Below the pieces are notes generated by a model, which did not search any database, had not been told where the DNA came from, and saw only the letters and a program-made list of their open reading frames with translations. The position numbers and the translations under genes are program-made. A stretch of DNA of 42,297 nucleotides, taken from a virus (lineage: Duplodnaviria; Caudoviricetes). The DNA is taken from positions 1 to 42,297 of IMG/VR virus record IMGVR_UViG_3300032212_000039; one strand, 5' to 3'. Position 1 is the stretch's first letter. Each line of letters starts with the position of its first letter. This document shows positions 466 through 40,769 of the stretch, one piece after another.

Positions 466-841
466 ATTCACGGTTTACGGAAATCTACCTGGAGTAAATG
501 ACATTTATCGAGGCCATAGGAGAAGCCACCAGCAAAAGAAAAACACACTGGAGGGTATTATCGCCATCGATATAAAACACCAGCTGAGGGGCGTTAAAAT
601 GCGAAAGAAATTCGCCATGCAATTCAAGTGGTACCACTCGAACATGCGAAAGGACCAGGATAACGTCGAATTCGGGAAGAAGTTTATAATGGATGCGGCG
701 CAAAAAGCGGGACTGATTGAGAATGACAACTGGAAGTGGGCTGGAGGGAATACCATTCACGAACATTATGTGGATCCCTTGCAACCCAGATGCGAAGTCG
801 CATTTATTGAAGGGCTTCGAATTACACTCGATTTCGAGTAA
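377..841 (+). CDS. rusA: RusA-like Holliday junction resolvase
   Basis: LPGVN, D-Q-D-N..KFIMDA..KAGLIENDN and PRCEV motifs; start taken at ATG 377 (317 is the alternative). Confidence 0.8.
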   Translation: MKKKNKSRKSPGDSQKTSELIDLTEDRIIRFTVYGNLPGVNDIYRGHRRSHQQKKNTLEGIIAIDIKHQLRGVKMRKKFAMQFKWYHSNMRKDQDNVEFGKKFIMDAAQKAGLIENDNWKWAGGNTIHEHYVDPLQPRCEVAFIEGLRITLDFE

Positions 842-880
842 AATCCTATCAAATATTTTTAAATCTATCAATTTCAAACA

Positions 881-2464: not shown

Positions 2465-2501
2465 TTAATTGACTATTTTTCAACCTATCAAAATCAAGAT
2501 T

Positions 2502-5409: not shown

Positions 5410-5419
5410 CCTATCAAAT

Positions 5420-5827
5420 ATGAATAATACAATCAAATGGATCCTGGTCGGGGTCTTAGTATTCGAATGTTTTTTCGGCTTCGAAAATGCACACCAGATA
5501 ATTAAGTCGGAGATCTGGCCAGCGGAATCGAAAAGCTTACTTCCTGTTGATCATCCCTTAAACACGTCCTATCCGATCGACCGATCAAACATGGACCAAC
5601 AAATCACCGCATCATCGTACAACGTATCCGGAGAGTTGCACACGCGTATCGAGTTTCCGCCACGACTTTACCTGGATACCTTGAAGATTCCAAAAATCAA
5701 AGTTGTAGTATTCGAAAAACCAAACGGGGATTTGGTTGTCGTAGACATGTACAACGGCGGATCTAAACTAGAGATAACGGCGGATCTCAAAGAGGATTTA
5801 AAATTCGTACCTTTACCTAAGAAATGA
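5420..5827 (+). CDS. Exported or membrane-anchored hypothetical protein
   Basis: N-terminal hydrophobic segment; CCTATCAAAT leader. Confidence 0.65.
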   Translation: MNNTIKWILVGVLVFECFFGFENAHQIIKSEIWPAESKSLLPVDHPLNTSYPIDRSNMDQQITASSYNVSGELHTRIEFPPRLYLDTLKIPKIKVVVFEKPNGDLVVVDMYNGGSKLEITADLKEDLKFVPLPKK

Positions 5828-5867
5828 GTTAGTATTTTATTTGTTTGTTGCTCAAAAGGAGTCCTTT

Positions 5868-5898
5868 AAGCCATGCTGGAAACGGTGTGGCTTTTTTT
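5868..5898 (+). terminator. Rho-independent terminator
   Basis: AAGCCATGCTG-GAAA-CGGTGTGGCTT followed by a T run. Confidence 0.85.
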
Positions 5899-5954
5899 AT
5901 GCCCTCAATTGTTTTAAATTGCAATATGTTTTTAAACCTATCAAAATCAAGATT

Positions 5955-6569
5955 ATGAAGCCGATTAAATTTAAAGGGCACAACGCCGTACTAGGGAAAG
6001 GACAACCTGAATACGAAGAATTACCAGCGTTTATTAATCACGCCAGCCCAATGGGCGAGATCTCCCAATGTTGGGAAATAACCGACGACGACCTTATCAC
6101 AATCGCAAAAACTAGAAAGATTTGGGTCACTCAATTTACATTCGGAGAACGGCTGCAGCCCATTCGAGTCGAGGCGGATTCTCCCATTCCAGAGCCACAA
6201 CCAGGAGCCACAACAGACCCACGGATCATCGGATACAAACGGGATGAGGACGCGATAATGTGTTTATCTAAACAGGCTTTTATGTTCGCCATTCGCTACA
6301 TAGGCCCAAACCTAACCGGATTCATAAGTGAATTAATGGACGGATGTGAAAAGAACACTATCAAGGTAATAGACTTGTCGACATTCGCTCAGTTCTCCAG
6401 GATAAAACAGGATTTTAAAGAGGGGGACACGGTGCACGAAATAAAGCAGCGGCTAAGAAAGAATACCCCACTAAACCGAAAACGTCCACCGTTATGTTTA
6501 ACATTTGACGGACAATCGACGGGAAATGATATCGCAGCGCTACGGGAATGGCTGACAGGATCCTTTTAA
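5955..6569 (+). CDS. Two-domain phage hypothetical protein
   Basis: N-terminal MKPIKF..N.V....QPEY..LP...CW...LQP phage domain; start moved to ATG 5955. Confidence 0.7.
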   Translation: MKPIKFKGHNAVLGKGQPEYEELPAFINHASPMGEISQCWEITDDDLITIAKTRKIWVTQFTFGERLQPIRVEADSPIPEPQPGATTDPRIIGYKRDEDAIMCLSKQAFMFAIRYIGPNLTGFISELMDGCEKNTIKVIDLSTFAQFSRIKQDFKEGDTVHEIKQRLRKNTPLNRKRPPLCLTFDGQSTGNDIAALREWLTGSF

Positions 6570-6593
6570 TCACCTTTTAAATACCTATCAATA

Positions 6594-6851
6594 ATGAGCT
6601 TAATTTCTAAGGATGGCGAAAAGGAAAAAGCCGTTGAAATAACAGAGGATACAAAATGGGTAAGTGTGTATATATCTGCATCATTTACCGGCGATTACTA
6701 CCACGCTTCACGGAATACATCTAGCGACATATATATCGGAGACGTCGAAGGGGTTGATAAAAAGAAGATTGAAATTTGGAAGCGAGTCCAAGAAATAGCA
6801 AATATTCACTTTGATATAGGATATGTCGTGCATAAGAAAACCATAGAATAA
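6594..6851 (+). CDS. Hypothetical protein
   Basis: 85-aa ORF with CCTATCAA leader. Confidence 0.65.
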   Translation: MSLISKDGEKEKAVEITEDTKWVSVYISASFTGDYYHASRNTSSDIYIGDVEGVDKKKIEIWKRVQEIANIHFDIGYVVHKKTIE

Positions 6852-9265: not shown

Positions 9266-9922
9266 ATGACTATAGCCGCCGCATTACAGCAGCTCCTTTT
9301 ATGCTCATGCCCTCAATCTTCAGAAATTCCAGATATCACGGCGATCACTTGTGTCGAGGATCTGGGAGAACTTCGAAAGCTTATTTTTCAAAGAACTTAC
9401 CTTTCCGCTGGAGTCCTTAACAATATCGTTATAGCGACAGACGATCCAGCCCTCCAAGCAACTTGGACAACGCTCCAGGGATTAGCCACTAACGCAAAGG
9501 TTACGGTGTCCCCTGAATTTGGTAATTATCAGCCGTCTGGAGGGGATCAGCGAACGGCCGGTGGTGGTGCGCAAACTCCAGGAGGTATTCCCCTGAATCT
9601 TGGTTTCAATCCTACTATATCGACGGCCGAATTACAGCGAGTCCCACAGGATACCATTCGAGATCTTAAAAATTACTCATGTGAGGTCGGGCTATCTGTT
9701 TGGCTGATTAATGAGCATGGCCAGATTATCGGACTAAAGGACGCCACGGTCGCCGCTAATTTCCGAGGTATTCCCGTTGCTCAATTTGCCGTAGGGGATA
9801 AAGTACCTGGCCATTACGCTGGATACGATTACAATCCAATGATTTGGAGCTTTTATCCTAACTGGTCGGACTATTTGCACGTTGTAACACCTACAGATTT
9901 CAACGCTTTAACTCAACTCTAA
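9266..9922 (+). CDS. Major tail (tube) protein
   Basis: CxCP..IPDI...C.E..G...K..FQR and W.F.PNWSD motifs recalled from B40-8-like major structural proteins; strong leader. Confidence 0.7.
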   Translation: MTIAAALQQLLLCSCPQSSEIPDITAITCVEDLGELRKLIFQRTYLSAGVLNNIVIATDDPALQATWTTLQGLATNAKVTVSPEFGNYQPSGGDQRTAGGGAQTPGGIPLNLGFNPTISTAELQRVPQDTIRDLKNYSCEVGLSVWLINEHGQIIGLKDATVAANFRGIPVAQFAVGDKVPGHYAGYDYNPMIWSFYPNWSDYLHVVTPTDFNALTQL

Positions 9923-11849: not shown

Positions 11850-12329
11850 ATGGCAAAGAACAAACTAGCCGGTAAGGTGCTGATTGATTCCAGGACGAAA
11901 AATCCATCTTTAAAGGAATTTCGGCTTTCCGAGGATGAGGTCGCTAAGTACAAACCGGAAAAGGGTACCGAAGACCTGGTGCACCTAGAACTAGAAAAAG
12001 TTGTTTGGGACGATGGCGAGAAAGCATCCTTACCAAACATTACAAAAATTCCGCAAAACGCTTGGTTATTCATGCGGCGGAAATTGATTACCCAGGGGTT
12101 TAATTACATCCGGATCCTACACGCTGGAGCGGATGTCGAAACCCGACTTTTGATGGACAAAGGACTTTATTCGGCTTTAAAAAACGCGACTAAAAAACGC
12201 GTCACTTTCAACGATGAATATGTAGAAGTAATTGATCCAGAGAAAGGAGGTAAAACACTTACCCGTCGAGAAGCGGCGGCAGCGGCTGAAAAAGCAGCCG
12301 AGGAGGCGAAAGCCAACGCGACAGTATAA
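11850..12329 (+). CDS. Hypothetical head-module protein
   Basis: 159-aa ORF between portal and scaffold. Confidence 0.7.
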   Translation: MAKNKLAGKVLIDSRTKNPSLKEFRLSEDEVAKYKPEKGTEDLVHLELEKVVWDDGEKASLPNITKIPQNAWLFMRRKLITQGFNYIRILHAGADVETRLLMDKGLYSALKNATKKRVTFNDEYVEVIDPEKGGKTLTRREAAAAAEKAAEEAKANATV

Positions 12330-12363
12330 ACCTATTTTTTTCCATCAACAAATAATGTGAAAC

Positions 12364-13308
12364 ATGTTGACGATTGACAAATTAAAAACAAATGCCGAGC
12401 TGGCCAAACTAGATGCAAGCCTTTTGACCGTTATCGAGGATCTATCGAAAGCCGATGAGAAACTGTCGATAGACAAAGTAACTAGAACGTTACATGAGGG
12501 GTACGATAAGGATATAAAAGCGATAACGGGATTGGAAAAACCCGCGAATATGCAAACCTATCAGCATATGAGCGCAATTCTAAAGGATGTCTGGCCATTG
12601 AAAACCAAAGTAGCCGATTTAGAGCAGAAGATTAAAGACGGGGACGGAGATCCAGCCCTTAAAAAGCAAATCGAAACCTTAACCGGTCAGATTGCGGATA
12701 AGGACAAAGAGCTGGAGACAATCAAGGGTACTTTAGACACGAAAACGACTGAATTCCAAAAGACTTTGCAGGACAAAGAGCTGGAGGTTAAAAAGACCGT
12801 AACCAGTCTAAAGTTTGCGGAGGCTGAGAAAGGAGTCGTTTTTAAAGATGTATACGGGGAACAGATCCTTAAAAATGAGATTGAGCGCCGCCGATCCGAC
12901 ATCCTCAATAATGTGACCATTGAGGAGACCGACGATGGCCAGGGCGGAAAGTCTACTATTTTGAGAGGTCCGGATAAAACGATCCTAACCAATAAAGAGG
13001 ACGGATTTAAGCCGCATACATTACAGTCATATTACGTCGCTCAATTGGGGGACTTAATCGATACAGGAAAGAAAGCACCAGGCGGCGGATCAAAACCTCC
13101 AAGTAAAGCAGATCCTAAAGTCGTGACGCTGGACTTTTCCGAAGCTAAAGATCAATTCGCTGCCTCGGTGGTGATTGATAAATACCTCCTTTCAAAAGGA
13201 GTAAAAGAAACAGATCCCTCTTATGGGGATCAATACGCTAAGATCTGGGACGATAACAAAGTGGATGAGATGCCACAAAACGAATCGTCGGATCCTGCTG
13301 GCGAATAA
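12364..13308 (+). CDS. Capsid scaffolding protein
   Basis: Charged coiled coil with PGGGS linker, directly upstream of the capsid gene. Confidence 0.75.
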   Translation: MLTIDKLKTNAELAKLDASLLTVIEDLSKADEKLSIDKVTRTLHEGYDKDIKAITGLEKPANMQTYQHMSAILKDVWPLKTKVADLEQKIKDGDGDPALKKQIETLTGQIADKDKELETIKGTLDTKTTEFQKTLQDKELEVKKTVTSLKFAEAEKGVVFKDVYGEQILKNEIERRRSDILNNVTIEETDDGQGGKSTILRGPDKTILTNKEDGFKPHTLQSYYVAQLGDLIDTGKKAPGGGSKPPSKADPKVVTLDFSEAKDQFAASVVIDKYLLSKGVKETDPSYGDQYAKIWDDNKVDEMPQNESSDPAGE

Positions 13309-13360: not shown

Positions 13361-14401
13361 ATGACTTTAATCGCAACCAGATTGCAGAATTTCCGGTCTG
13401 ATAATCCGGACATTGCAAAATGGGAATATCGAACCGGCAATTATGGTGCATGGAATTTATTTTCCAAGCAATCACAGGCGCCAAATTCCATTATCAATAA
13501 CGACCTACGATCAAAGGCGATCGCCGCCGTAGGATCAGGATTAGAGATCCCTGTAATTGATTACGCGGCTAGTACGATCCAAAACGTTACCCAACCGGTA
13601 GCCGTTATCGATGATCCTTTGACCTCCCAATTAATGGCGGTAACTTTTACCGATTATTATTTCGGGTTCCTAATGTACGACGCCCAATTTTACAACAACA
13701 ATATCAGTCCTCGACAGTATTTCAATACACAAATGCGTCGATGGGTATTGGCATTGTTGAACGAATGGGATCAAGACGCCCTTACCGTACTGGAGACGAA
13801 CAAAACCCAGGTATTAGGATCCACTTTAGGCGGCAAGTACACCTTAACCGGTGACGTTATCAGTGGAACGAATGCCTTTAAGGATCAGATCATCGGTGAT
13901 ATCAACCCATTGATGAGAGGGAACGATTTTAGCGGTCCTTTCGATGTGGTTGGTAATCCCTCTTTGGAGTCTCACGTCCGCAATAACCTCCTGGAGAAAG
14001 GAGCACAGCAGGACAGCGACAAAACGTACCAGTGGAACGACAAGAACTGGCATTTCTCCAATAATGTAGCGGATGGCGCTGGCCAGGCTTTTACCGGCTT
14101 CGCTGTTCAGTCTGGATCTGTTGGCGTTCTTGATCAGTTCTTACCAGACAATGTTTGGTCACATAAGAGCAACAATCACCAATGGCGGATTATGGACATT
14201 CCAGGATTAGGCGGGAAGATGGGAACCTATACTTATGATGGCGCGGTCGATGCTTCTGGCTTGAATGCTAGTACGGCACACCTTACAGCCACCAAGGTAC
14301 AAGCCTATGGGTTCCACGTACGAAAATCCTTTGTACATGCTTACAATTCAGATCTGGCGACCATTGCGTCGGCAACGGGTAAATTCCAGATCGCGCAATA
14401 A
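13361..14401 (+). CDS. Major capsid protein
   Basis: 346 aa; MTLIATRLQN..YGA...IGDINPLMRGN resembles B40-8/B124-14 major head protein (recollection); follows the scaffold. Confidence 0.85.
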   Translation: MTLIATRLQNFRSDNPDIAKWEYRTGNYGAWNLFSKQSQAPNSIINNDLRSKAIAAVGSGLEIPVIDYAASTIQNVTQPVAVIDDPLTSQLMAVTFTDYYFGFLMYDAQFYNNNISPRQYFNTQMRRWVLALLNEWDQDALTVLETNKTQVLGSTLGGKYTLTGDVISGTNAFKDQIIGDINPLMRGNDFSGPFDVVGNPSLESHVRNNLLEKGAQQDSDKTYQWNDKNWHFSNNVADGAGQAFTGFAVQSGSVGVLDQFLPDNVWSHKSNNHQWRIMDIPGLGGKMGTYTYDGAVDASGLNASTAHLTATKVQAYGFHVRKSFVHAYNSDLATIASATGKFQIAQ

Positions 14402-14490
14402 ATGACTAGATAGGTTTTTCATTTGTTTGGTATTTGATAGGATTTATCAATCGAGAGGAAAGGGGTTTAAAAGCTCCTTTCCTTCTTCCA
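14402..14490 (+). ncRNA. Capsid 3'-UTR candidate antisense RNA plus terminator-like hairpin (14456-14483)
   Basis: 14431-14445 is the exact reverse complement of 841-855; hairpin GGAAAGGGGTT...AGCTCCTTTCC. Confidence 0.5.
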
Positions 14491-14500
14491 ATTCTAATAT

Positions 14501-15664
14501 ATGTTTGATATCCAAAGCATCGAAGCGAGTTTTTTAAGCCTGGTTGGATGGGAACAAAACGCGGATCCTAGTGGCTGGCAGCTGACCGGCTTAACTACTA
14601 GCGATAGCGGTCTGTTTATGAATTCCATTCATTCAATGTTGACGATTGATAACCTGGTTGCACTAGCGCCACGTTTCGACGAAATCCACACTGGAGACGA
14701 TCCAGCCAGGAATACGGCTTTTACTGGATGGGTAGAACGGCTAATGAAAACAGCCATCCAGGAAGGCGTCGGTATTTGGATTGATACTAAGATCGGCCGC
14801 AAGACAGCAACCAACCTATTAGCCGACAGTCGCCTTTTTAATATCGCGGGATCCTTTGACCAGCTCCAGACTAAAAACGGTCGGTTTGTTGGGATATCGA
14901 TAACACCAAAATGCGATAAAGGAATCGCGGGATTGATTCGAAAAGTTGGAATCCAGATGGAACAGGCGGAAACTTTCGCGCTAAGGCTATTTAAAGGCGA
15001 TTCAGCCGTCGAAGTCCAAAATCAGTCGATTACATACACCGTCGGCGGATCCGTTCAATGGGTGGACGTAAACTGGGCCTTAGAATCTGGTACCACGTAC
15101 TTTATAGGGTACCATGAGGATGAGATCACCGGCCAGGCCATTAACGGGGTATTGGGTTTCGGATATGAGGACCACGGCCGTTTGTATTTTCCAAGTGAAC
15201 GCCATTTTAATGCGACTGCATTCTCGATCGCCAAATCAAATGATTCGAATATGTGGGCCGTATCTGGAAACTCGTATACCAGCGGCACCAACTACGGACT
15301 GAATCTGGATCTTTCTTTTCATGCCGACTATACGAATCTAGTAATCGAACAGCGACTTATTTTCGCTCGATTTATTGCGCTCCAGCTGGCGATCAATATT
15401 CTAAAGGAGCTGATATCGAATCCTAATTCCAAGCTTAACCGAAATACTGAGAACGCCGCATCGATAAAAGCCTGGCTTTTGGATGAGATTAACGGCAATA
15501 AGAACGATAAAAACGATACAAGTTTGGCCGGTAAGTACCGAAAAGCGTTAGCCGCCATCCAATTCGAGTATAACCAGGTTAACGATACGCTACTCCCAGA
15601 GGTAGAATCGAGGCCTATTTTTGAAAGTCTAGGATCTGAGCCAACCGGGTACTATGAATTTTAA
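14501..15664 (+). CDS. Virion structural protein (head-tail adaptor-like)
   Basis: LVGWEQ...SGL....H..LT.DN and NYGLN motifs; position after the capsid gene. Confidence 0.65.
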   Translation: MFDIQSIEASFLSLVGWEQNADPSGWQLTGLTTSDSGLFMNSIHSMLTIDNLVALAPRFDEIHTGDDPARNTAFTGWVERLMKTAIQEGVGIWIDTKIGRKTATNLLADSRLFNIAGSFDQLQTKNGRFVGISITPKCDKGIAGLIRKVGIQMEQAETFALRLFKGDSAVEVQNQSITYTVGGSVQWVDVNWALESGTTYFIGYHEDEITGQAINGVLGFGYEDHGRLYFPSERHFNATAFSIAKSNDSNMWAVSGNSYTSGTNYGLNLDLSFHADYTNLVIEQRLIFARFIALQLAINILKELISNPNSKLNRNTENAASIKAWLLDEINGNKNDKNDTSLAGKYRKALAAIQFEYNQVNDTLLPEVESRPIFESLGSEPTGYYEF

Positions 15665-16108: not shown

Positions 16109-16685
16109 TTTACGAGTACCCGCTAAGATGATCCCAGACAATCCCGTCCTCCTGGATCGGGCGCTTTGGGAGATATCCGACAACCTGGCCAGTGAATTAT
16201 CTTGGATAGATAATAATTACGGATTGGCCCAACGTGTCGACGATGCAAACCAGGGACTTATTCCAGCTTATTATACTACCAACGGGATCGAGTACTTCCC
16301 TTTATTTCCAGATGAGAGTCTAGGAAATTTTCTGTTTTTTGACAGAGACGAAACCAGGTCTATTTTCGACAGTCCGGAGAAGCTTCGAAGTGGGGCCAAC
16401 GTAAAGGAGAAAATCGGGCTAATCGTTTGGTACAATATCAAAACCGTATTCCCCACTAACTGGAGTACTCGAACCAATGAAAATGTAAAGGGGCTAGTAC
16501 TTCAAGCCCTGGAGGATATTGTCCACATACATAGCTCTTATACGGCCGTCGATATGTTTCATGAGGGGAAGAACATCTATAAGGGCTATAAACTACCGGA
16601 AAGCCGCTCCCAATACCTTATGCGTCCGTTTGGGGGGTTTCGTATCAATCTTAATATTTCGTATAACAACTTAAACCGCTGCTAA
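16101..16685 (+). CDS. Putative tail terminator / neck protein
   Basis: Position; LM.PFGGFR motif. Confidence 0.55.
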   Translation: MSSLRVPAKMIPDNPVLLDRALWEISDNLASELSWIDNNYGLAQRVDDANQGLIPAYYTTNGIEYFPLFPDESLGNFLFFDRDETRSIFDSPEKLRSGANVKEKIGLIVWYNIKTVFPTNWSTRTNENVKGLVLQALEDIVHIHSSYTAVDMFHEGKNIYKGYKLPESRSQYLMRPFGGFRINLNISYNNLNRC

Positions 16686-17113
16686 TGATAGAAAAGCGGG
16701 AATATACGTTCGAAGCTGCATTCGTGAGCGCTTACGATGGCGACTCGATAACATTGTCGCATGAACTAGGGTTCACAGTCAGTAAGGAGGAAAAAGTCCG
16801 CCTAAAGGGCTTAGATACACCAGAAATGCGGGGCGGTACACCCCTAACGAAACAAGCGGCTAGAGTTGTCCGTGATTATGTTACATGGTGGTGCAAGGAT
16901 GAGAATTTGATTTCGTCCTCACTCGCTGGAGATAAAGGAAAATACGGCCGATATCTAATCGAAGTTTACAAAGATGGAATCCTATTAAATCACCACTTGA
17001 TCGAAATAGGATTCGCCAGGCCATATTTTGGAGAAAAAAAAGAGCCCTGGACAGATGCCGAGGCACAGCGAATAATTGATAGTTCTTATGCTAAGATGAT
17101 AAATACCAAGTAA
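16685..17113 (+). CDS. Thermonuclease (SNase-like) family protein
   Basis: YDGDS, VRLKGLDTPE, GKYGRYL and LN..LI..GFARPY.G motifs. Confidence 0.9.
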   Translation: MIEKREYTFEAAFVSAYDGDSITLSHELGFTVSKEEKVRLKGLDTPEMRGGTPLTKQAARVVRDYVTWWCKDENLISSSLAGDKGKYGRYLIEVYKDGILLNHHLIEIGFARPYFGEKKEPWTDAEAQRIIDSSYAKMINTK

Positions 17114-28446: not shown

Positions 28447-30009
28447 ATGATTAAAAGAATCACAATCGCGCTTTTACTGCTGGTCTTATCGACTAGCCTA
28501 TTTGCGCAGCGCGTACCGAAAGATTTGCCGAAATCCTACGTAAAGGAGTACAAGCAAAACAGGAAAGCACTAAAGAGCTTAAAAGGCTTTGATGTCGTCC
28601 TTGATCCGGTCGAAGTAACCGACATGGCCCCGTCGATGTCTGCTGGCCAGGCTGAAATCCTTAATTGGGGTAATCTTAACCTGGCGATTACGGCCAACGC
28701 TGACAAGATCAAAAGCAAATTGAAACGACCGGTATGGGTATACGTATTCGATACGGCTGGAGATCTTAAACACAAGATGTTAAGCAAGTCGTCAAGGACT
28801 GGCTTTAGTTTCACCGGTGAGCCATCAAAGGAAGATGGAAACGGGCACGGAACGCATGTCGCCGGCATCTATGGCGCTTGGAACCAGTCCCAACAATTGG
28901 GAATAGCTAGGTACCTGGCGGAAAAGGGATTATTAAATATCGTCCCCGTCAAGGTCTTGAGCGACCAGGGTTCCGGATTATATAGCTGGATGACTACAGC
29001 GGTTTATAAGATGATTGAAGATGCAAAGAAACATCCCGACGCGTTTATCATCTTTAATTTTTCGCTGTCAGGATCAGCAGGATCCGCCGCTTTTGATATC
29101 GCACTGGCGGAGGCAAAGAAAGCCGGTATTGCGGTCGTATGCGCCGCCGGTAATTCAGGAAAGAAGGAATTAGGATATCCGGCCAGGTCATTACATACGG
29201 ATGCTATCTCCGCAAGTGGTACCAACAACACTAAGGCCAGCTTTTCAAACTATGGCGAGGGTATTAGTTTTATCGCTCCAGGAGTGGCCATTAATTCGAC
29301 CTGGAAAAACGGAACAGTCAGAGCGTTATCGGGAACTTCAATGAGTACGCCAACCCAGGGCGCAATATATGCCATCCTGGCCAGTGTTAACCCTATGGCC
29401 ACCGCTGCGCAAATTCGTGCCCACATGATCAAGTACACCACCGATTTACCACCGACCGGATATGATGAGAACAACGGCCACGGCTTATCGGTGATTACTA
29501 GGATGCTAGAGAATCCGATTAATCCAAGCGACCCACCAGAGGAGCCAGAGGAAGAACCAGAGGAGCCAGGAGAATTACCAACGAAAAACACCAGGTACAT
29601 TGTATCCGATATCCCGACCAGATATACGGTACTCTGGAGGGCGAAAGACGATGGTAAATGGCAGGAGCTAATTATTAAGCTATCGGTAAGGATGAAAACC
29701 AACCTGTATGCGGAGGACGCAATCAAGGCGCTTAACGTAGCGACACTAAAGCACTTTGTCCGACGATACTATATCATCCCCGAAACTGGAGACTTTATCG
29801 ATGCTGGTTTTGCAGTACGCCGGTTTTATGAAATACTGCTGGAGGATCAAGGGCTGGCCGTTGATGTTATCGATATCCGAGTTGAAAGCGAAGACGGGTA
29901 CCAGGCTAGAGCGGTAAACATTCCACGGATCGGAGCGCGAAAGATAAAGAAGCTAATGAAAGCCAGCGATTCGGGATACCTCGCACCAGGTCAGAAGTCC
30001 CCGTATTAA
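28447..30009 (+). CDS. Secreted subtilisin-family (S8) serine protease
   Basis: Signal peptide SLFA|Q; catalytic D (VFDTA), H (HGTHVAG), oxyanion N (AAGN), S (GTSMST). Confidence 0.93.
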   Translation: MIKRITIALLLLVLSTSLFAQRVPKDLPKSYVKEYKQNRKALKSLKGFDVVLDPVEVTDMAPSMSAGQAEILNWGNLNLAITANADKIKSKLKRPVWVYVFDTAGDLKHKMLSKSSRTGFSFTGEPSKEDGNGHGTHVAGIYGAWNQSQQLGIARYLAEKGLLNIVPVKVLSDQGSGLYSWMTTAVYKMIEDAKKHPDAFIIFNFSLSGSAGSAAFDIALAEAKKAGIAVVCAAGNSGKKELGYPARSLHTDAISASGTNNTKASFSNYGEGISFIAPGVAINSTWKNGTVRALSGTSMSTPTQGAIYAILASVNPMATAAQIRAHMIKYTTDLPPTGYDENNGHGLSVITRMLENPINPSDPPEEPEEEPEEPGELPTKNTRYIVSDIPTRYTVLWRAKDDGKWQELIIKLSVRMKTNLYAEDAIKALNVATLKHFVRRYYIIPETGDFIDAGFAVRRFYEILLEDQGLAVDVIDIRVESEDGYQARAVNIPRIGARKIKKLMKASDSGYLAPGQKSPY

Positions 30010-30044: not shown

Positions 30045-30545
30045 ATGGAAGAACTTAAATTTGTAATCGATGAGCAAGCGCTAAGGAATTTAAGCATCGT
30101 CATGGCAAACGATGAACCGGAGGAAGTGACGGATTCAATAGCCGACGCCGCTCAAGTTATCATCATTGTAGAAAGACCATTGCAGGACGGGTTCCAATAT
30201 ACCGACCTTTTCCAATGGGTGGCCGTCCAGCCCTATATTCAAGAACTAGTGAACGACGCCCAAACGTTTTGGACACAGTTCAATGAGGTTGTAGCAAAGA
30301 ATCCTAAATTAGCGATTGCTTCTGTTGTTGAGGCGAGGCGGAGGGTTGAGGGCTCCGGTTTAACAAATGGGGCAAAGCTGTTTTTCAACTTCTTATTCCT
30401 AGCTGCTAATGGATTTGATTTTGGATCAATGGTATTCATTCAAAGCCAGGCACAAATTACCATGTGGCAAAACTTTTTCAAAGGGGTGGATATTATGCCA
30501 AACGCCATCCCAACGGCGATCGGACCTGGAAACCTCGCCGGTTAA
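30045..30545 (+). CDS. Hypothetical protein
   Basis: 166-aa ORF; last gene before the terminator. Confidence 0.75.
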   Translation: MEELKFVIDEQALRNLSIVMANDEPEEVTDSIADAAQVIIIVERPLQDGFQYTDLFQWVAVQPYIQELVNDAQTFWTQFNEVVAKNPKLAIASVVEARRRVEGSGLTNGAKLFFNFLFLAANGFDFGSMVFIQSQAQITMWQNFFKGVDIMPNAIPTAIGPGNLAG

Positions 30546-30601
30546 ATCGCATAGTGTTGAAGGCCCATTGACACGGGCAGTATGTTTCATAGTTTTAGAC
30601 G

Positions 30602-30636
30602 GAACCAATCTCGAAAGGGGTTGGTTCTTTTTTTTT
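30602..30636 (+). terminator. Rho-independent terminator ending the late operon
   Basis: GAACCAATCTC-GAAA-GGGGTTGGTTC followed by T9. Confidence 0.9.
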
Positions 30637-33626: not shown

Positions 33627-33671
33627 GATCTTACGGTGATACTCACCGTTTGTTTTTCGTTGAATCATTTC

Positions 33672-33704
33672 GAGGGCTTGCTAATTGCACGCCCTCTTTT
33701 TTTT
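33672..33704 (+). terminator. Rho-independent terminator (contains the -33 of the next promoter)
   Basis: GAGGGC...GCCCTC followed by T8. Confidence 0.8.
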
Positions 33705-33715
33705 CCCTATCTTTG
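33685..33715 (+). promoter_or_regulatory. Promoter for a candidate sRNA
   Basis: TTGC at 33685, TATCTTTG at 33708-33715. Confidence 0.65.
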
Positions 33716-35154: not shown

Positions 35155-35180
35155 TTTTCAAATCCTATCAAATCAATATT

Positions 35181-36083
35181 ATGAGTGAGGAAAAACAAAG
35201 CCATACAAGCGAAGATTTATTAAAGCAAATCTTAGAGCTTCAAAACAAGTTAAAAGCTACTGAATTGAAGGCTATTGGACTGTATAACGAAAACCAGCAG
35301 TACAAAATGAACATTGCACCGGATGCAATGCGTATGAAAGCGGAATTGAATATCGAGCTGGAGGTAGCACAGACCTTTATCACATCTGGAGCTTTTCCCA
35401 ATGTGACAAAAGAGCAAGCCTACGTAATTATGAAAGCCGGTCAGGAAATGGGCCTGGATAAAGTCGAGTCTTTGCAATCCCTATACATAACACCAAAGGG
35501 GAAAATTGAGATCTTCGGAAAAGCCCTAACTGGATTCATCAAACGGGGCGGATATGAAATCGAATACCAGGAGGAAATCGAGTCCAGCGTAGTAGTAAGG
35601 GTTTTTCATCCAACGAATGGATATGACTATCGGGAATTGGTGACAGACCAGGACCAGGTTATCAAAGCGAAGTACCGGAAAGATGGGAGCAAACGAACGT
35701 CGGCGATCGATTTCGCTAAGAAAAATAAAATGCGATTCCACGGATTGAGAATGCACTTGAATTTTAGGTTAGCCCACTTAATAAAGGCGACATCTGATTT
35801 ATTTTCGAATGATTTCCTGGAGTGGAAAGAGCAACAACAATTGGATTCAAAAATCCAACTAGGTTTGCCGGTCGAATCACAACCTGGACTAGATCTGGAA
35901 GCAATCGAGGCCAATAAGAATATCGAGCGGATTTCTAACCGCTTAAAAACGGCCACTGGATTGCAATTAGTTAACCTTCGCGAAACTTGCGAAAAACTCA
36001 ATTTGATGGATCTTTACGAGGATCGAGTCGACGAGCTGGAAGCACTGGAGGCGGAACAAAGACAGAATTCCAATGAAGGGTAA
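35181..36083 (+). CDS. RecT/Bet-like single-strand annealing protein
   Basis: IMKAGQEMGL...SLQSLYI...GKI motif; adjacent to an exonuclease gene. Confidence 0.65.
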   Translation: MSEEKQSHTSEDLLKQILELQNKLKATELKAIGLYNENQQYKMNIAPDAMRMKAELNIELEVAQTFITSGAFPNVTKEQAYVIMKAGQEMGLDKVESLQSLYITPKGKIEIFGKALTGFIKRGGYEIEYQEEIESSVVVRVFHPTNGYDYRELVTDQDQVIKAKYRKDGSKRTSAIDFAKKNKMRFHGLRMHLNFRLAHLIKATSDLFSNDFLEWKEQQQLDSKIQLGLPVESQPGLDLEAIEANKNIERISNRLKTATGLQLVNLRETCEKLNLMDLYEDRVDELEALEAEQRQNSNEG

Positions 36084-37884: not shown

Positions 37885-37939
37885 TGTCGTAGAACACCAC
37901 AATAAACGACCATTTTTCAACCTATCTAAAACCAGTAAA

Positions 37940-38215
37940 ATGATTATCGACGAAAACTATTTTATAACATTTGACACTCACAACGTCACGTTGAATTATC
38001 AGAAAGTGAGTGACCAACTCAACAAAAAAGGCGAGAATGTAGTCACCAAAAGATCGAGCCATCACGGATCGGTTAGACAGGCTTTAATCGCCTTTTTGAA
38101 TTCAGCCGTCAAAGATGAACGGGATTGTACAGATGTAATCGACCTGTTGGCCCGTATGGATACCATAGAGGATAAGATTAACAAATTCATAGCCCAACAT
38201 TCAACGGAAAAATAA
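37940..38215 (+). CDS. Hypothetical protein
   Basis: Start moved to ATG 37940 behind the AACCTATCTAAAA leader. Confidence 0.65.
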   Translation: MIIDENYFITFDTHNVTLNYQKVSDQLNKKGENVVTKRSSHHGSVRQALIAFLNSAVKDERDCTDVIDLLARMDTIEDKINKFIAQHSTEK

Positions 38216-38261
38216 AAGTCGCTTAAAAGGGCTTAAAAATAGTGTTGGATTTAGTTTGGTC

Positions 38262-38298
38262 GGGGGATTCTTAAAGGCAGGATCCCCCACTTTTTTTT
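38262..38298 (+). terminator. Rho-independent terminator
   Basis: GGGGGATTCT...AGGATCCCCC followed by T8. Confidence 0.8.
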
Positions 38299-39300: not shown

Positions 39301-40769
39301 GCTATAATAAAAATGCAGCATTAGAATTGACGAATATTAAATCCCCGTCCGCCGTACCGATTGAAGAAGCTATTTTGGGTAGTTGTATGATGGATAGAGA
39401 ATGTATAGCATTGGTGATATCTATACTACCAGTCGAAGCTTTCTATTTAGATAGTCACAAATTTATATTTGAATCAATCATTGATTTATTTAGTCAATCA
39501 TTGCCGGTCGATTTATTAACAGTTACTAAAACCCTCCAGAGTTCTGGAAAACTGGAGAGCATAGGGGGGCCGGTTTATATTGTAGAACTAACGAACAAGG
39601 TTTCCAGCTCCGCCAATATTGAATACCATTGTCGAATTGTTAAACAGGAATGGATTAAGCGACATACAATGGTCGTTGGACATGGATTATACACCCAGGC
39701 GCAAGACCCAACGACGGACCCATTTGACTTAGTGGAATATGCGGAAAAGGGGATTTTTGAATTATCCCAGGGATTCAATAAGAGAGAACCGGTAAAACTT
39801 AGCCTGGCATTGAGTAAGGAGGTAAGACGCCAGGAGGAAATAAGCGGACAGCCCGACGGAATAATCGGATTATCTACTGGATTTAGAGATTTGGACAAAG
39901 TGCTCCGAGGCTTACGGGCACCAGATTTAATGATATTAGCAGCCCGTCCAGGAATGGGAAAAACGGCGCTAATGTTAGCCCTTAGTAAGTTTATAGCCGA
40001 AAACGGTAATCCAGCGGCGGTTTTTTCGCTGGAAATGTCAGTGGAACAATTGACACAGCGAATCATTGCGATGGATACTGAGCTACCAGGTTACAAAATT
40101 GAGAATCCCCACCGGCGATCGGAACATGAAAACCAGGTATATTTTGATTCGGTTCAAAGATTGGAAAATCTCCCATTATTCATCGACGACGAACCAGGTA
40201 TAAACATTACCCAACTTCGGAGCAAATGTCGCCGACTAAAGCAGGAGCACGATATCGGGTTTATTGTAGTTGATTATTTGCAATTGATGTCGGGCACCAA
40301 TAGCGGCGGATCTGGAAGGAATCGAGAACAGGAAATATCTGAGATCTCCAGGGGATTGAAAATGTTAGCTAAGGAATTGCACATGCCAGTTTTGGCTTTA
40401 TCGCAGCTTTCAAGAGCCGTAGAGCAAAGAGGAGGAACAAAACGACCTCAATTGAGTGACTTACGAGAAAGTGGTTCTATCGAGCAGGACGCCGATATCG
40501 TTTCCTTTATCTACCGGCCAGAATATTACAAAATAATGGAGGACGCCGACGGAACATCGACCAGGGGACTAGCGGAGATTATAATCGCCAAAAACCGGCG
40601 CGGTGCCGTAACGGACGTAGATCTTCATTTTCGGGCGGAGTGCACAAAATTCACCGATCGAGATTCGGTCGATTTCATATTTGATGAACTCGCACAAACG
40701 GCCGTCGATTATCAAAAGATGGCGAACGTATCTCCACCGGATGATGATGAGGAGAATTTACCATTCTGA
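39297..40769 (+). CDS. dnaB: Replicative DNA helicase
   Basis: AARPGMGKT, FSLEMS, VDYLQLM, LSQLSR, SDLRESGSIEQDAD. Confidence 0.97.
   Translation: MSYNKNAALELTNIKSPSAVPIEEAILGSCMMDRECIALVISILPVEAFYLDSHKFIFESIIDLFSQSLPVDLLTVTKTLQSSGKLESIGGPVYIVELTNKVSSSANIEYHCRIVKQEWIKRHTMVVGHGLYTQAQDPTTDPFDLVEYAEKGIFELSQGFNKREPVKLSLALSKEVRRQEEISGQPDGIIGLSTGFRDLDKVLRGLRAPDLMILAARPGMGKTALMLALSKFIAENGNPAAVFSLEMSVEQLTQRIIAMDTELPGYKIENPHRRSEHENQVYFDSVQRLENLPLFIDDEPGINITQLRSKCRRLKQEHDIGFIVVDYLQLMSGTNSGGSGRNREQEISEISRGLKMLAKELHMPVLALSQLSRAVEQRGGTKRPQLSDLRESGSIEQDADIVSFIYRPEYYKIMEDADGTSTRGLAEIIIAKNRRGAVTDVDLHFRAECTKFTDRDSVDFIFDELAQTAVDYQKMANVSPPDDDEENLPF

Follow-up and report, generated by a model that had tools for sequence, protein, structure and literature searches.

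The window (the whole stretch of 42,297 nucleotides analysed here) is the 42.3-kb record of a complete marine Bacteroidota siphophage with a capsid of the B40-8/P2559S type, and its plus strand carries essentially all genes. Leaders of Bacteroidota are expected to lack Shine-Dalgarno motifs, and those of the window are A-rich and devoid of such motifs. According to the available text of PMC6847099, initiation in Bacteroidota is set by upstream nucleotides and mRNA structure. The element of interest lies behind a gene whose predicted major-capsid identity was borne out by a match to PDB 9ww9, obtained with a capsid family profile (Table 1). This gene matched 76 GenBank Bacteroidota phage records, many of them annotated as capsid or MP1, and 75 of these records are named phages (Flavobacterium, Bacteroides, Parabacteroides, Croceibacter, Alistipes and Elizabethkingia). 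The sole cellular match was a contig in a Flavobacteriaceae bin, and a single-protein search of IMG/VR with the capsid gave no match. As to the gene at 9266-9922, it bears the PHROG label 'major head protein', and GenBank notes link its family to the major tail protein MP2 of B40-8; the true capsid gene is 13361-14401, not 9266-9922. Elsewhere in the window, we noticed a protease-like gene (PHROG 3677) at 28447-30009, after the tail module; an endonuclease-like gene (PHROG 452) at 16685-17113, within the head-tail cluster; and an AT-rich repeat, ATTTA...TCAATCATTG, at 39446-39500 inside a DnaB-like gene, which scored high in the window scan.

Table 1. Features of the capsid locus and predicted target leaders in the window.
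Feature	Position	Strand	Evidence or remark
Major capsid protein gene, 346 aa	13361..14401	+	PDB 9ww9 'Capsid protein', E 5.6e-108; carries the element
U/G-rich 3' UTR tract, complementary to own translation-initiation regions	14402..14452	+	match scoring, shuffles
5' module: box 1 (GATAGG at 14409) and anti-AUG core GTTTTTCAT (14414-14422)	14407..14430	+	
3' module: 15-nt seed TATTTGATAGGATTT	14431..14445	+	predicted weak hairpin 14434-14450
Strong hairpin	14453..14487	+	no clean U-run
Leader of gene 881-1378	841..855	+	15-nt match at -40..-26, plus 11 bp across AUG
Leader of RecT-like gene 35181-36083	35160..35173	+	14-nt match at -21..-8
Leader of gene 5420-5827	5410..5420	+	11-nt match, last base = A of ATG
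Leader of gene 37940-38215	37919..37928	+	10-nt match to box 1
Leader of gene 2502-2834	2484..2492	+	9-nt match
Leader of gene 5955-6569	5937..5945	+	9-nt match; near-duplicate of the 2502 leader
Leader of gene 6594-6851	6584..6591	+	8-nt match
Leader of putative scaffold gene 12364-13308 (weaker candidate)	12328..12337	+	10 bp, one G-U, to box 1

As originally predicted, the tract contains two GATAGG boxes, the second one at 14436, and folding placed a strong hairpin right after it. The 5' module is predicted to pair across start codons, with the leader of gene 37940 and the scaffold leader, and its anti-AUG core (GUUUUUCAU in RNA letters) lies with box 1 inside a G-U-rich hairpin (14405-14431) in the predicted fold. 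A weak 6-bp hairpin is predicted at 14434-14450, with GGAUU in its loop, and this loop display is soft because the pairing probability is only ~0.5. The strong hairpin, which was not called by a terminator scan, is likely a leaky terminator or a 3'-stabilising stem; a homologous hairpin with a U-tail occurs in many relatives. The -7 promoter box of Bacteroidota has the consensus TAnnTTTG. No exact copy of this box was found upstream of the tract, and the only boxes with one mismatch lie inside it, so that an RNA, if made, would have to come from the capsid mRNA, as its tail or as a fragment processed from it. The gapped two-box pattern had no match in IMG/VR. Four related DNA runs span the tract, and three of them carry a net +1 indel at 14403-14406. 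The sequencing runs listed included none of RNA, which has no bearing on expression.

The four longest matches of the original prediction (15, 14, 11 and 10 nt) were recovered exactly. Its three 8-nt core matches were all present as well, with the difference that only that at 6584 is 8 nt long, those at 2484 and 5937 being of 9 nt. The leaders of genes 2502 and 5955 have 23 identical bases in common and are hence not independent. The predicted recombinase target also held, the gene at 35181 being RecT-like (PHROG 4171, E 1e-4; its alignment led to 8 loci), and the frame 37940-38215 matched the replication-initiation PHROG 154, while Pfam gave no useful label among 20 target and neighbour proteins. 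The tags lie 10-36 nt upstream of the AUG, in a single orientation and mostly within intra-operon gaps of 10-39 nt. CCTATCA, the letters of which are private to the window phage, is the top leader 7-mer found de novo, and its sole coding-strand complement lies in the capsid tail tract. The total count of CCTATCA is ordinary (9 observed vs 5.0 expected; reached in 6 of 100 shuffles), and what is notable is its position, since six of the eight plus-strand copies fall in the start regions, which make up 6.1% of the genome; the two copies within coding sequence (12557 and 25249) had been omitted from the earlier account. When the predicted binding included the cost of opening, leader 881 ranked first of 55 starts (-17.1 kcal/mol) and 5955, 6594, 35181, 5420 and 37940 were within the top ten, whereas the scaffold ranked 21 and the capsid's own start 47. 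Co-folding of the tract with its best targets (881 and 35181) gave duplexes in two parts, in which the seed covers the tag and the UUUUUCAU module spans the AUG. For most targets in the window, perfect pairing extends over 8-11 bp only, and the predicted fold hides box 1.

The complementarity was evaluated by scoring the tract as its summed match length against every start region (-45..+15). When 52 curated starts were used, the score was reached by none of 2000 dinucleotide shuffles and by two of 8451 windows of this genome, both overlapping the tract. The tract ranked first among 4225 same-length windows, and it stood above the best window of a block-shuffled genome in six trials out of six. 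An automatic start caller seeded on phage P2559S reproduced 47 of the 52 curated starts, among them three that had been corrected manually, and called 55, against which 0 of 3000 shuffles reached the score. Ten of 3000 still did so without the two best targets (z 3.0), and the signal dropped to z 1.8 (124 of 3000 shuffles) without all CCTATC leaders. No signal appeared in the shuffle test with the starts of the structural genes alone, and matches of at least 9 nt occurred at 10 of 36 non-structural vs 0 of 19 structural starts (Fisher p 0.010). The tract scored z 4.2 on its own leaders vs a mean of 0.5 (maximum 2.1) on the foreign starts of 17 other phages of the family, which argues that it is not merely generically anti-A-rich; tail boundaries were hand-set in this 17-phage test and automatic in the later set of IMG/VR loci. 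The predicted multi-target complementarity was therefore borne out and is specific to the phage's own non-structural leaders. We regard the complementarity between tract and leaders as a confirmed, real and non-random observation.

The sequence of the tract is not conserved in 80 IMG/VR loci, most of which have a U/G-rich tract and a hairpin past the capsid stop, and Rfam gave no family at gathering score in seven related loci. The clearest counterpart is a genome with 37% capsid identity (G014), in which the capsid tail TTTTTGGATTGTGAT faces six leaders tagged CACAATCC (matches of 14, 14, 12, 12, 10 and 9 nt; z 3.6 own vs 0.2 foreign). Its RecT-like orthologue (38% identity, E 1e-52) is tagged at -23..-10, its window counterpart at -21..-8. 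A de novo search, defined as the most private leader 7-mer per genome, returned ACAATCC for G014, with one complement in the capsid tail and two further ones inside genes. In the cultured Croceibacter phage P2559S (NC_018276.1), the de novo tag is CGAGAGC (tags ACCGAGAGC), eight of its nine plus-strand copies being just upstream of annotated starts. The single complement, at 30555, precedes the terminator after gp39 and is thus at a non-capsid 3' end; equal pairing was seen in 0 of 300 shuffles, and the seed is partly in a predicted loop. The region 30525-30602 of P2559S looks like a candidate stand-alone sRNA of ~75 nt, with a TATATTTG box upstream, the loop-exposed mirror and then the terminator.

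Other genomes gave a less uniform picture. In a systematic tag test without the window, 2-6 of 6-28 genomes had the mirror of their tag within a tract preceding a terminator, vs 0.25-2 expected (p 0.002-0.08 by threshold); at k=8, a positive signal was likewise given by the sense-orientation control (p 0.01-0.02). Only one of six held-out cultured genomes, tant8-1, had both tag and mirror, a result equalled in 171 of 1000 shuffles and not significant. The layout of tant8-1 (NC_048843.1) at 40431-40510 is similar (TATATTTG, tract, terminator), and its seed TGTTTGTTTG mirrors the top leader tag ACAAACA, scaffold leader included. The closest relative examined (G034, 57% capsid identity) was generically anti-start (z 1.7 own vs 1.6 foreign). 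In two further genomes, a strong private leader tag, AAATCGACA, precedes 6 genes (G001) and 10 genes (G002), and their 3' tracts contain no mirror of it; an apparent mirror of the G002 tag after the tube gene was rejected, since 71 of 300 shuffles were as good. Also in G002 (L090 at 2691, L092 at 1435), two TTGTTTATGGGATT tracts before early-region terminators mirror AAATCCCA(T) in three leaders; they are strong vs foreign genomes, not vs shuffles on summed match length. Repeated leader cassettes were noticed in G021. Among the first 17 genomes, self exceeded other in 13 (p 0.07), and many had no self-specific signal. The non-structural signal dropped to z -1.9..0 without the window and G014 at 70% clustering. 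Nor were G-U pairs, which pairing between RNAs should favour, enriched beside the cores of the three clear cases (36 seen vs 42 expected). The expected co-variation of tract and leader tag was thus found in G014 and P2559S and not in the GenBank held-out sets, and the capsid-tail form is patchy, being absent from most cultured relatives. From the null held-out sets, the generic G034 tail, the tags without mirrors and the G-U result, we conclude that the element is real in the window and in a minority of lineages and is not a family constant.

The window has four further U/G-rich pre-terminator tracts (5828-5900, 30570-30635, 33640-33705 and 38228-38297), and the one at 30580 (TGTTTCATAG) resembles the 5' end of FopS. 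None of the four was strongly self-specific; host targets are possible for them.

A second partner, the gene directly upstream of the capsid gene, was recognised post hoc from inspection of the IMG/VR loci, in which capsid tails often pair with its start. The scaffold identity of 12364-13308 comes from position only, with no solved relative found; its leader ranked 15 of 53 own starts of the window and first to second among foreign scaffold leaders. Tails and scaffold leaders show matched changes (TAGCTTTG/CAAAGCTA, TAACTTTGGGT/ACCCAAAGTTA, TGGCTTTGG/CCAAAGTCA and TTTTGAGGTTAAA/TTTAACCTTAAAA). When scaffold pairing was compared between self and non-self in IMG/VR, z was -4.6 with 28 clusters and -3.5 with 15. 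The controls (tube, portal, tape-measure, three other late genes and shuffled tails) were null, a gp17447 control was weakly positive at 90% clustering only, and the tails avoided their own capsid start (z +2.4 and +2.6). The scaffold signal persisted without the window (z -2.4 to -5.7) and became weaker when G014 was removed at 60% clustering (z -1.1 to -2.2). Capsid tails outdid 105 other 3' tracts for the scaffold (p 0.0007) and were no better than these for non-structural genes (p 0.22); a mirror test favoured RNA pairing for the scaffold only (p 0.03). The ranking of scaffold leaders and the self vs non-self comparison covered the tails that remained after nine of 57 distinct ones were omitted, because the scaffold was not called, the tail was short or its hairpin was weak. 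The without-window, 105-tract and systematic tag tests were run without G020 and G031; in the 105-tract comparison, the tail assigned to G027 was a wrong, near-identical one, and the other two tests used the right one. The scaffold pairing was not replicated in the 12 held-out GenBank phages analysed (out of 13, L181 being omitted; z -0.5, p 0.29), which have mostly short A-rich tails and a clear scaffold pair in BF503P1 only. Among relatives devoid of a U/G tail (L180, L182-L184 and L189-L192), an AAGGG motif occurs 3-12 nt before the scaffold start, and GTAAAGGG occurs upstream of several capsid genes (L003-L005); both could be a rare Shine-Dalgarno-like or structural element.

From the following lines of evidence, we propose, with a probability of about 0.6, that the tract is a FopS/GibS-like antisense RNA that would repress initiation on tagged phage mRNAs. 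First, the tract is complementary to the CCTATC tag, which seven non-structural genes of the same phage carry in their start regions. Second, a tag and its mirror, with other letters, exist in each of two other phages. Transcription across the capsid gene would end or pause at the strong hairpin, and the tract would act as an exposed capsid mRNA tail or as a processed piece of ~85 nt. The seed (14431-14445) would nucleate on the tag and the UUUUUCAU module would then zip over the AUG, in trans or, for the scaffold, in cis, and ribosome loading would be blocked. Structure across a Bacteroidota start region reduces initiation, as described in the accessible part of PMC6847099. As capsid mRNA accumulates, recombination, replication and accessory genes would be throttled, the scaffold more weakly, and the capsid start would be spared; such repression would come late. 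The late-to-early shut-off initially suggested for the tract is only one likely use, since the most recurrent partner in IMG/VR is the late scaffold gene. The targets 5420, 5955 and 6594, which lie just upstream of terminase, may not be early genes. By extension, Bacteroidota phages might run private antisense regulons, with lineage-specific, fast-changing tags and one pre-terminator mirror, here the capsid mRNA tail, a generalisation that we hold tentatively and to which we give somewhat less than an even chance.

Four other explanations were weighed against an antisense RNA. The one that survives best, though we consider it unlikely, is that the tract is a relic, a copy of a leader cassette inserted backwards behind the capsid gene and devoid of pairing function. 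It would account for the resemblance of the reversed tract to a whole gene start, and leaders are visibly duplicated, both in the window (2502 and 5955) and in G021; the tags without mirrors in G001 and G002, the patchy distribution and the null G-U flank test also fit it. It does not explain why three lineages, the letters of which are unrelated, each have a unique mirror immediately ahead of a terminator-type hairpin, or why two of the three carry the tag on the RecT-like orthologue. Nor does it explain the joint changes of scaffold leader and tail within one gut-type clade, or the avoidance of the own capsid start.

Slightly less probable is a FopS-like, generic anti-start tract, the main targets of which would be host mRNAs (for receptors or outer-membrane transporters, for instance) or an RNA-binding protein of the host (such as RbpB), with only secondary matches to the phage; this would be compatible with an antisense RNA against phage genes, as a second role of it. 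The letters GTTTTTCAT and the tract-hairpin layout are common to the tract and FopS-10, and both the four further U/G-rich tracts and the G034 tail lack strong self-specificity. A generic tract is nevertheless at odds with the weak signal on foreign phage starts (mean z 0.5) and with the dependence of most of the signal on the phage-private CCTATC tag.

We find it rather improbable that the tag is a protein site, namely a DNA operator or the site of an RNA-binding regulator, its inverted copies being a DNA site or an antisense decoy transcript. Such a site would also drift between phages along with its protein, the non-structural targets have no G-U signature, and the gut-clade mirror reads TAGCTTTG, which fits the -7 box. 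Yet every tag is on the sense strand, at most 36 nt from the AUG, and most of them occupy narrow gaps within operons; inverted copies are confined to a transcribed tract that precedes a hairpin; in two variants of the gut clade (L042 and L068), the -7 box is broken and the complementarity is kept; and an RNA-binding protein would not recognise the complement. Finally, the reading of the mirror as the start of a 24-aa minus-strand gene (14422 to 14348), an open frame MKNLSSH... after a typical leader, is largely refuted by the net +1 indel that shifts this frame in three of the four related runs and by the G014 mirror, which has no ATG.

To our knowledge, the ordering of gene expression in small one-strand Bacteroidota phages is poorly known. 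If the antisense proposal is true, a tag-and-mirror RNA would offer a protein-free control of timing and stoichiometry, readable straight from sequence. Under the wider reading of private regulons, capsid expression would by itself turn down the genes for replication and recombination and would fix the ratio of scaffold to capsid, no protein regulator being needed, and freedom from Shine-Dalgarno pairing would let the tags evolve. P2559S is the best bench model for this mechanism, as a clean GC-rich case with eight tagged starts and one predicted-loop mirror behind a candidate -7 box. For tests with reporters, systems are available in F. johnsoniae and B. thetaiotaomicron, and the seeds of such tracts could serve as orthogonal translational repressors in Bacteroidota.

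The phage RNAs P22 sar, lambda OOP and aQ are encoded opposite their targets, a cis-encoded layout not found in the window, the targets of which lie 2-24 kb from the tract on the same strand. Like them, the tract would be a phage RNA tuning phage expression by pairing; in what is accessible of the review PMC12197685, which makes no mention of 'capsid' or 'bacteroid', each of them has a single target, whereas the window element is distant from several short-tagged ones. The literature searched, mostly outside subscription journals, gave no description of a 3' UTR that is antisense to the leaders of its own phage in Bacteroidota.

The tract would work like FopS of Bacteroides thetaiotaomicron, which has a single-stranded seed followed by a terminator and pairs at start codons (PMC11697453, available portion). 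By eye, the nine letters GTTTTTCAT are common to the tract and to the FopS-10 5' primer AWO-881, the following letters differ, and the segment is predicted to be paired in the tract. The same portion of PMC11697453 describes RbpB binding, repression of susC-type mRNAs and deposition of the family in Rfam. At gathering score, Rfam gave no match in the window, in a copy that may not include FopS, and only chance-level hits in 14300-14600 (E 3-10). The window element differs from FopS as far as the latter is described there, in that its seed is the mirror of a phage-private CCTATC tag, its predicted targets are the phage's own genes, it has no exact promoter box and its hairpin has no U-run; the tract is not a FopS family member. 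With GibS, as presented in the available text of PMC7366714, it shares a long, AU-rich and weakly structured seed, start-codon pairing, two seed regions and a lineage that does not use Shine-Dalgarno pairing. GibS, which had no Rfam match in the window, differs in that it is transcribed from a start site of its own in an intergenic region of the host and acts on metabolic targets. Closest to the scaffold pairing by an mRNA tail, for which it provides a model, is the 3' UTR of Staphylococcus aureus icaR, in which, according to the consulted part of PMC3868564, initiation is blocked when a motif pairs, in cis or in trans, with a ribosome-binding region. The icaR motif pairs with its own Shine-Dalgarno sequence, whereas the window tract avoids its own capsid start and has several other genes tagged.
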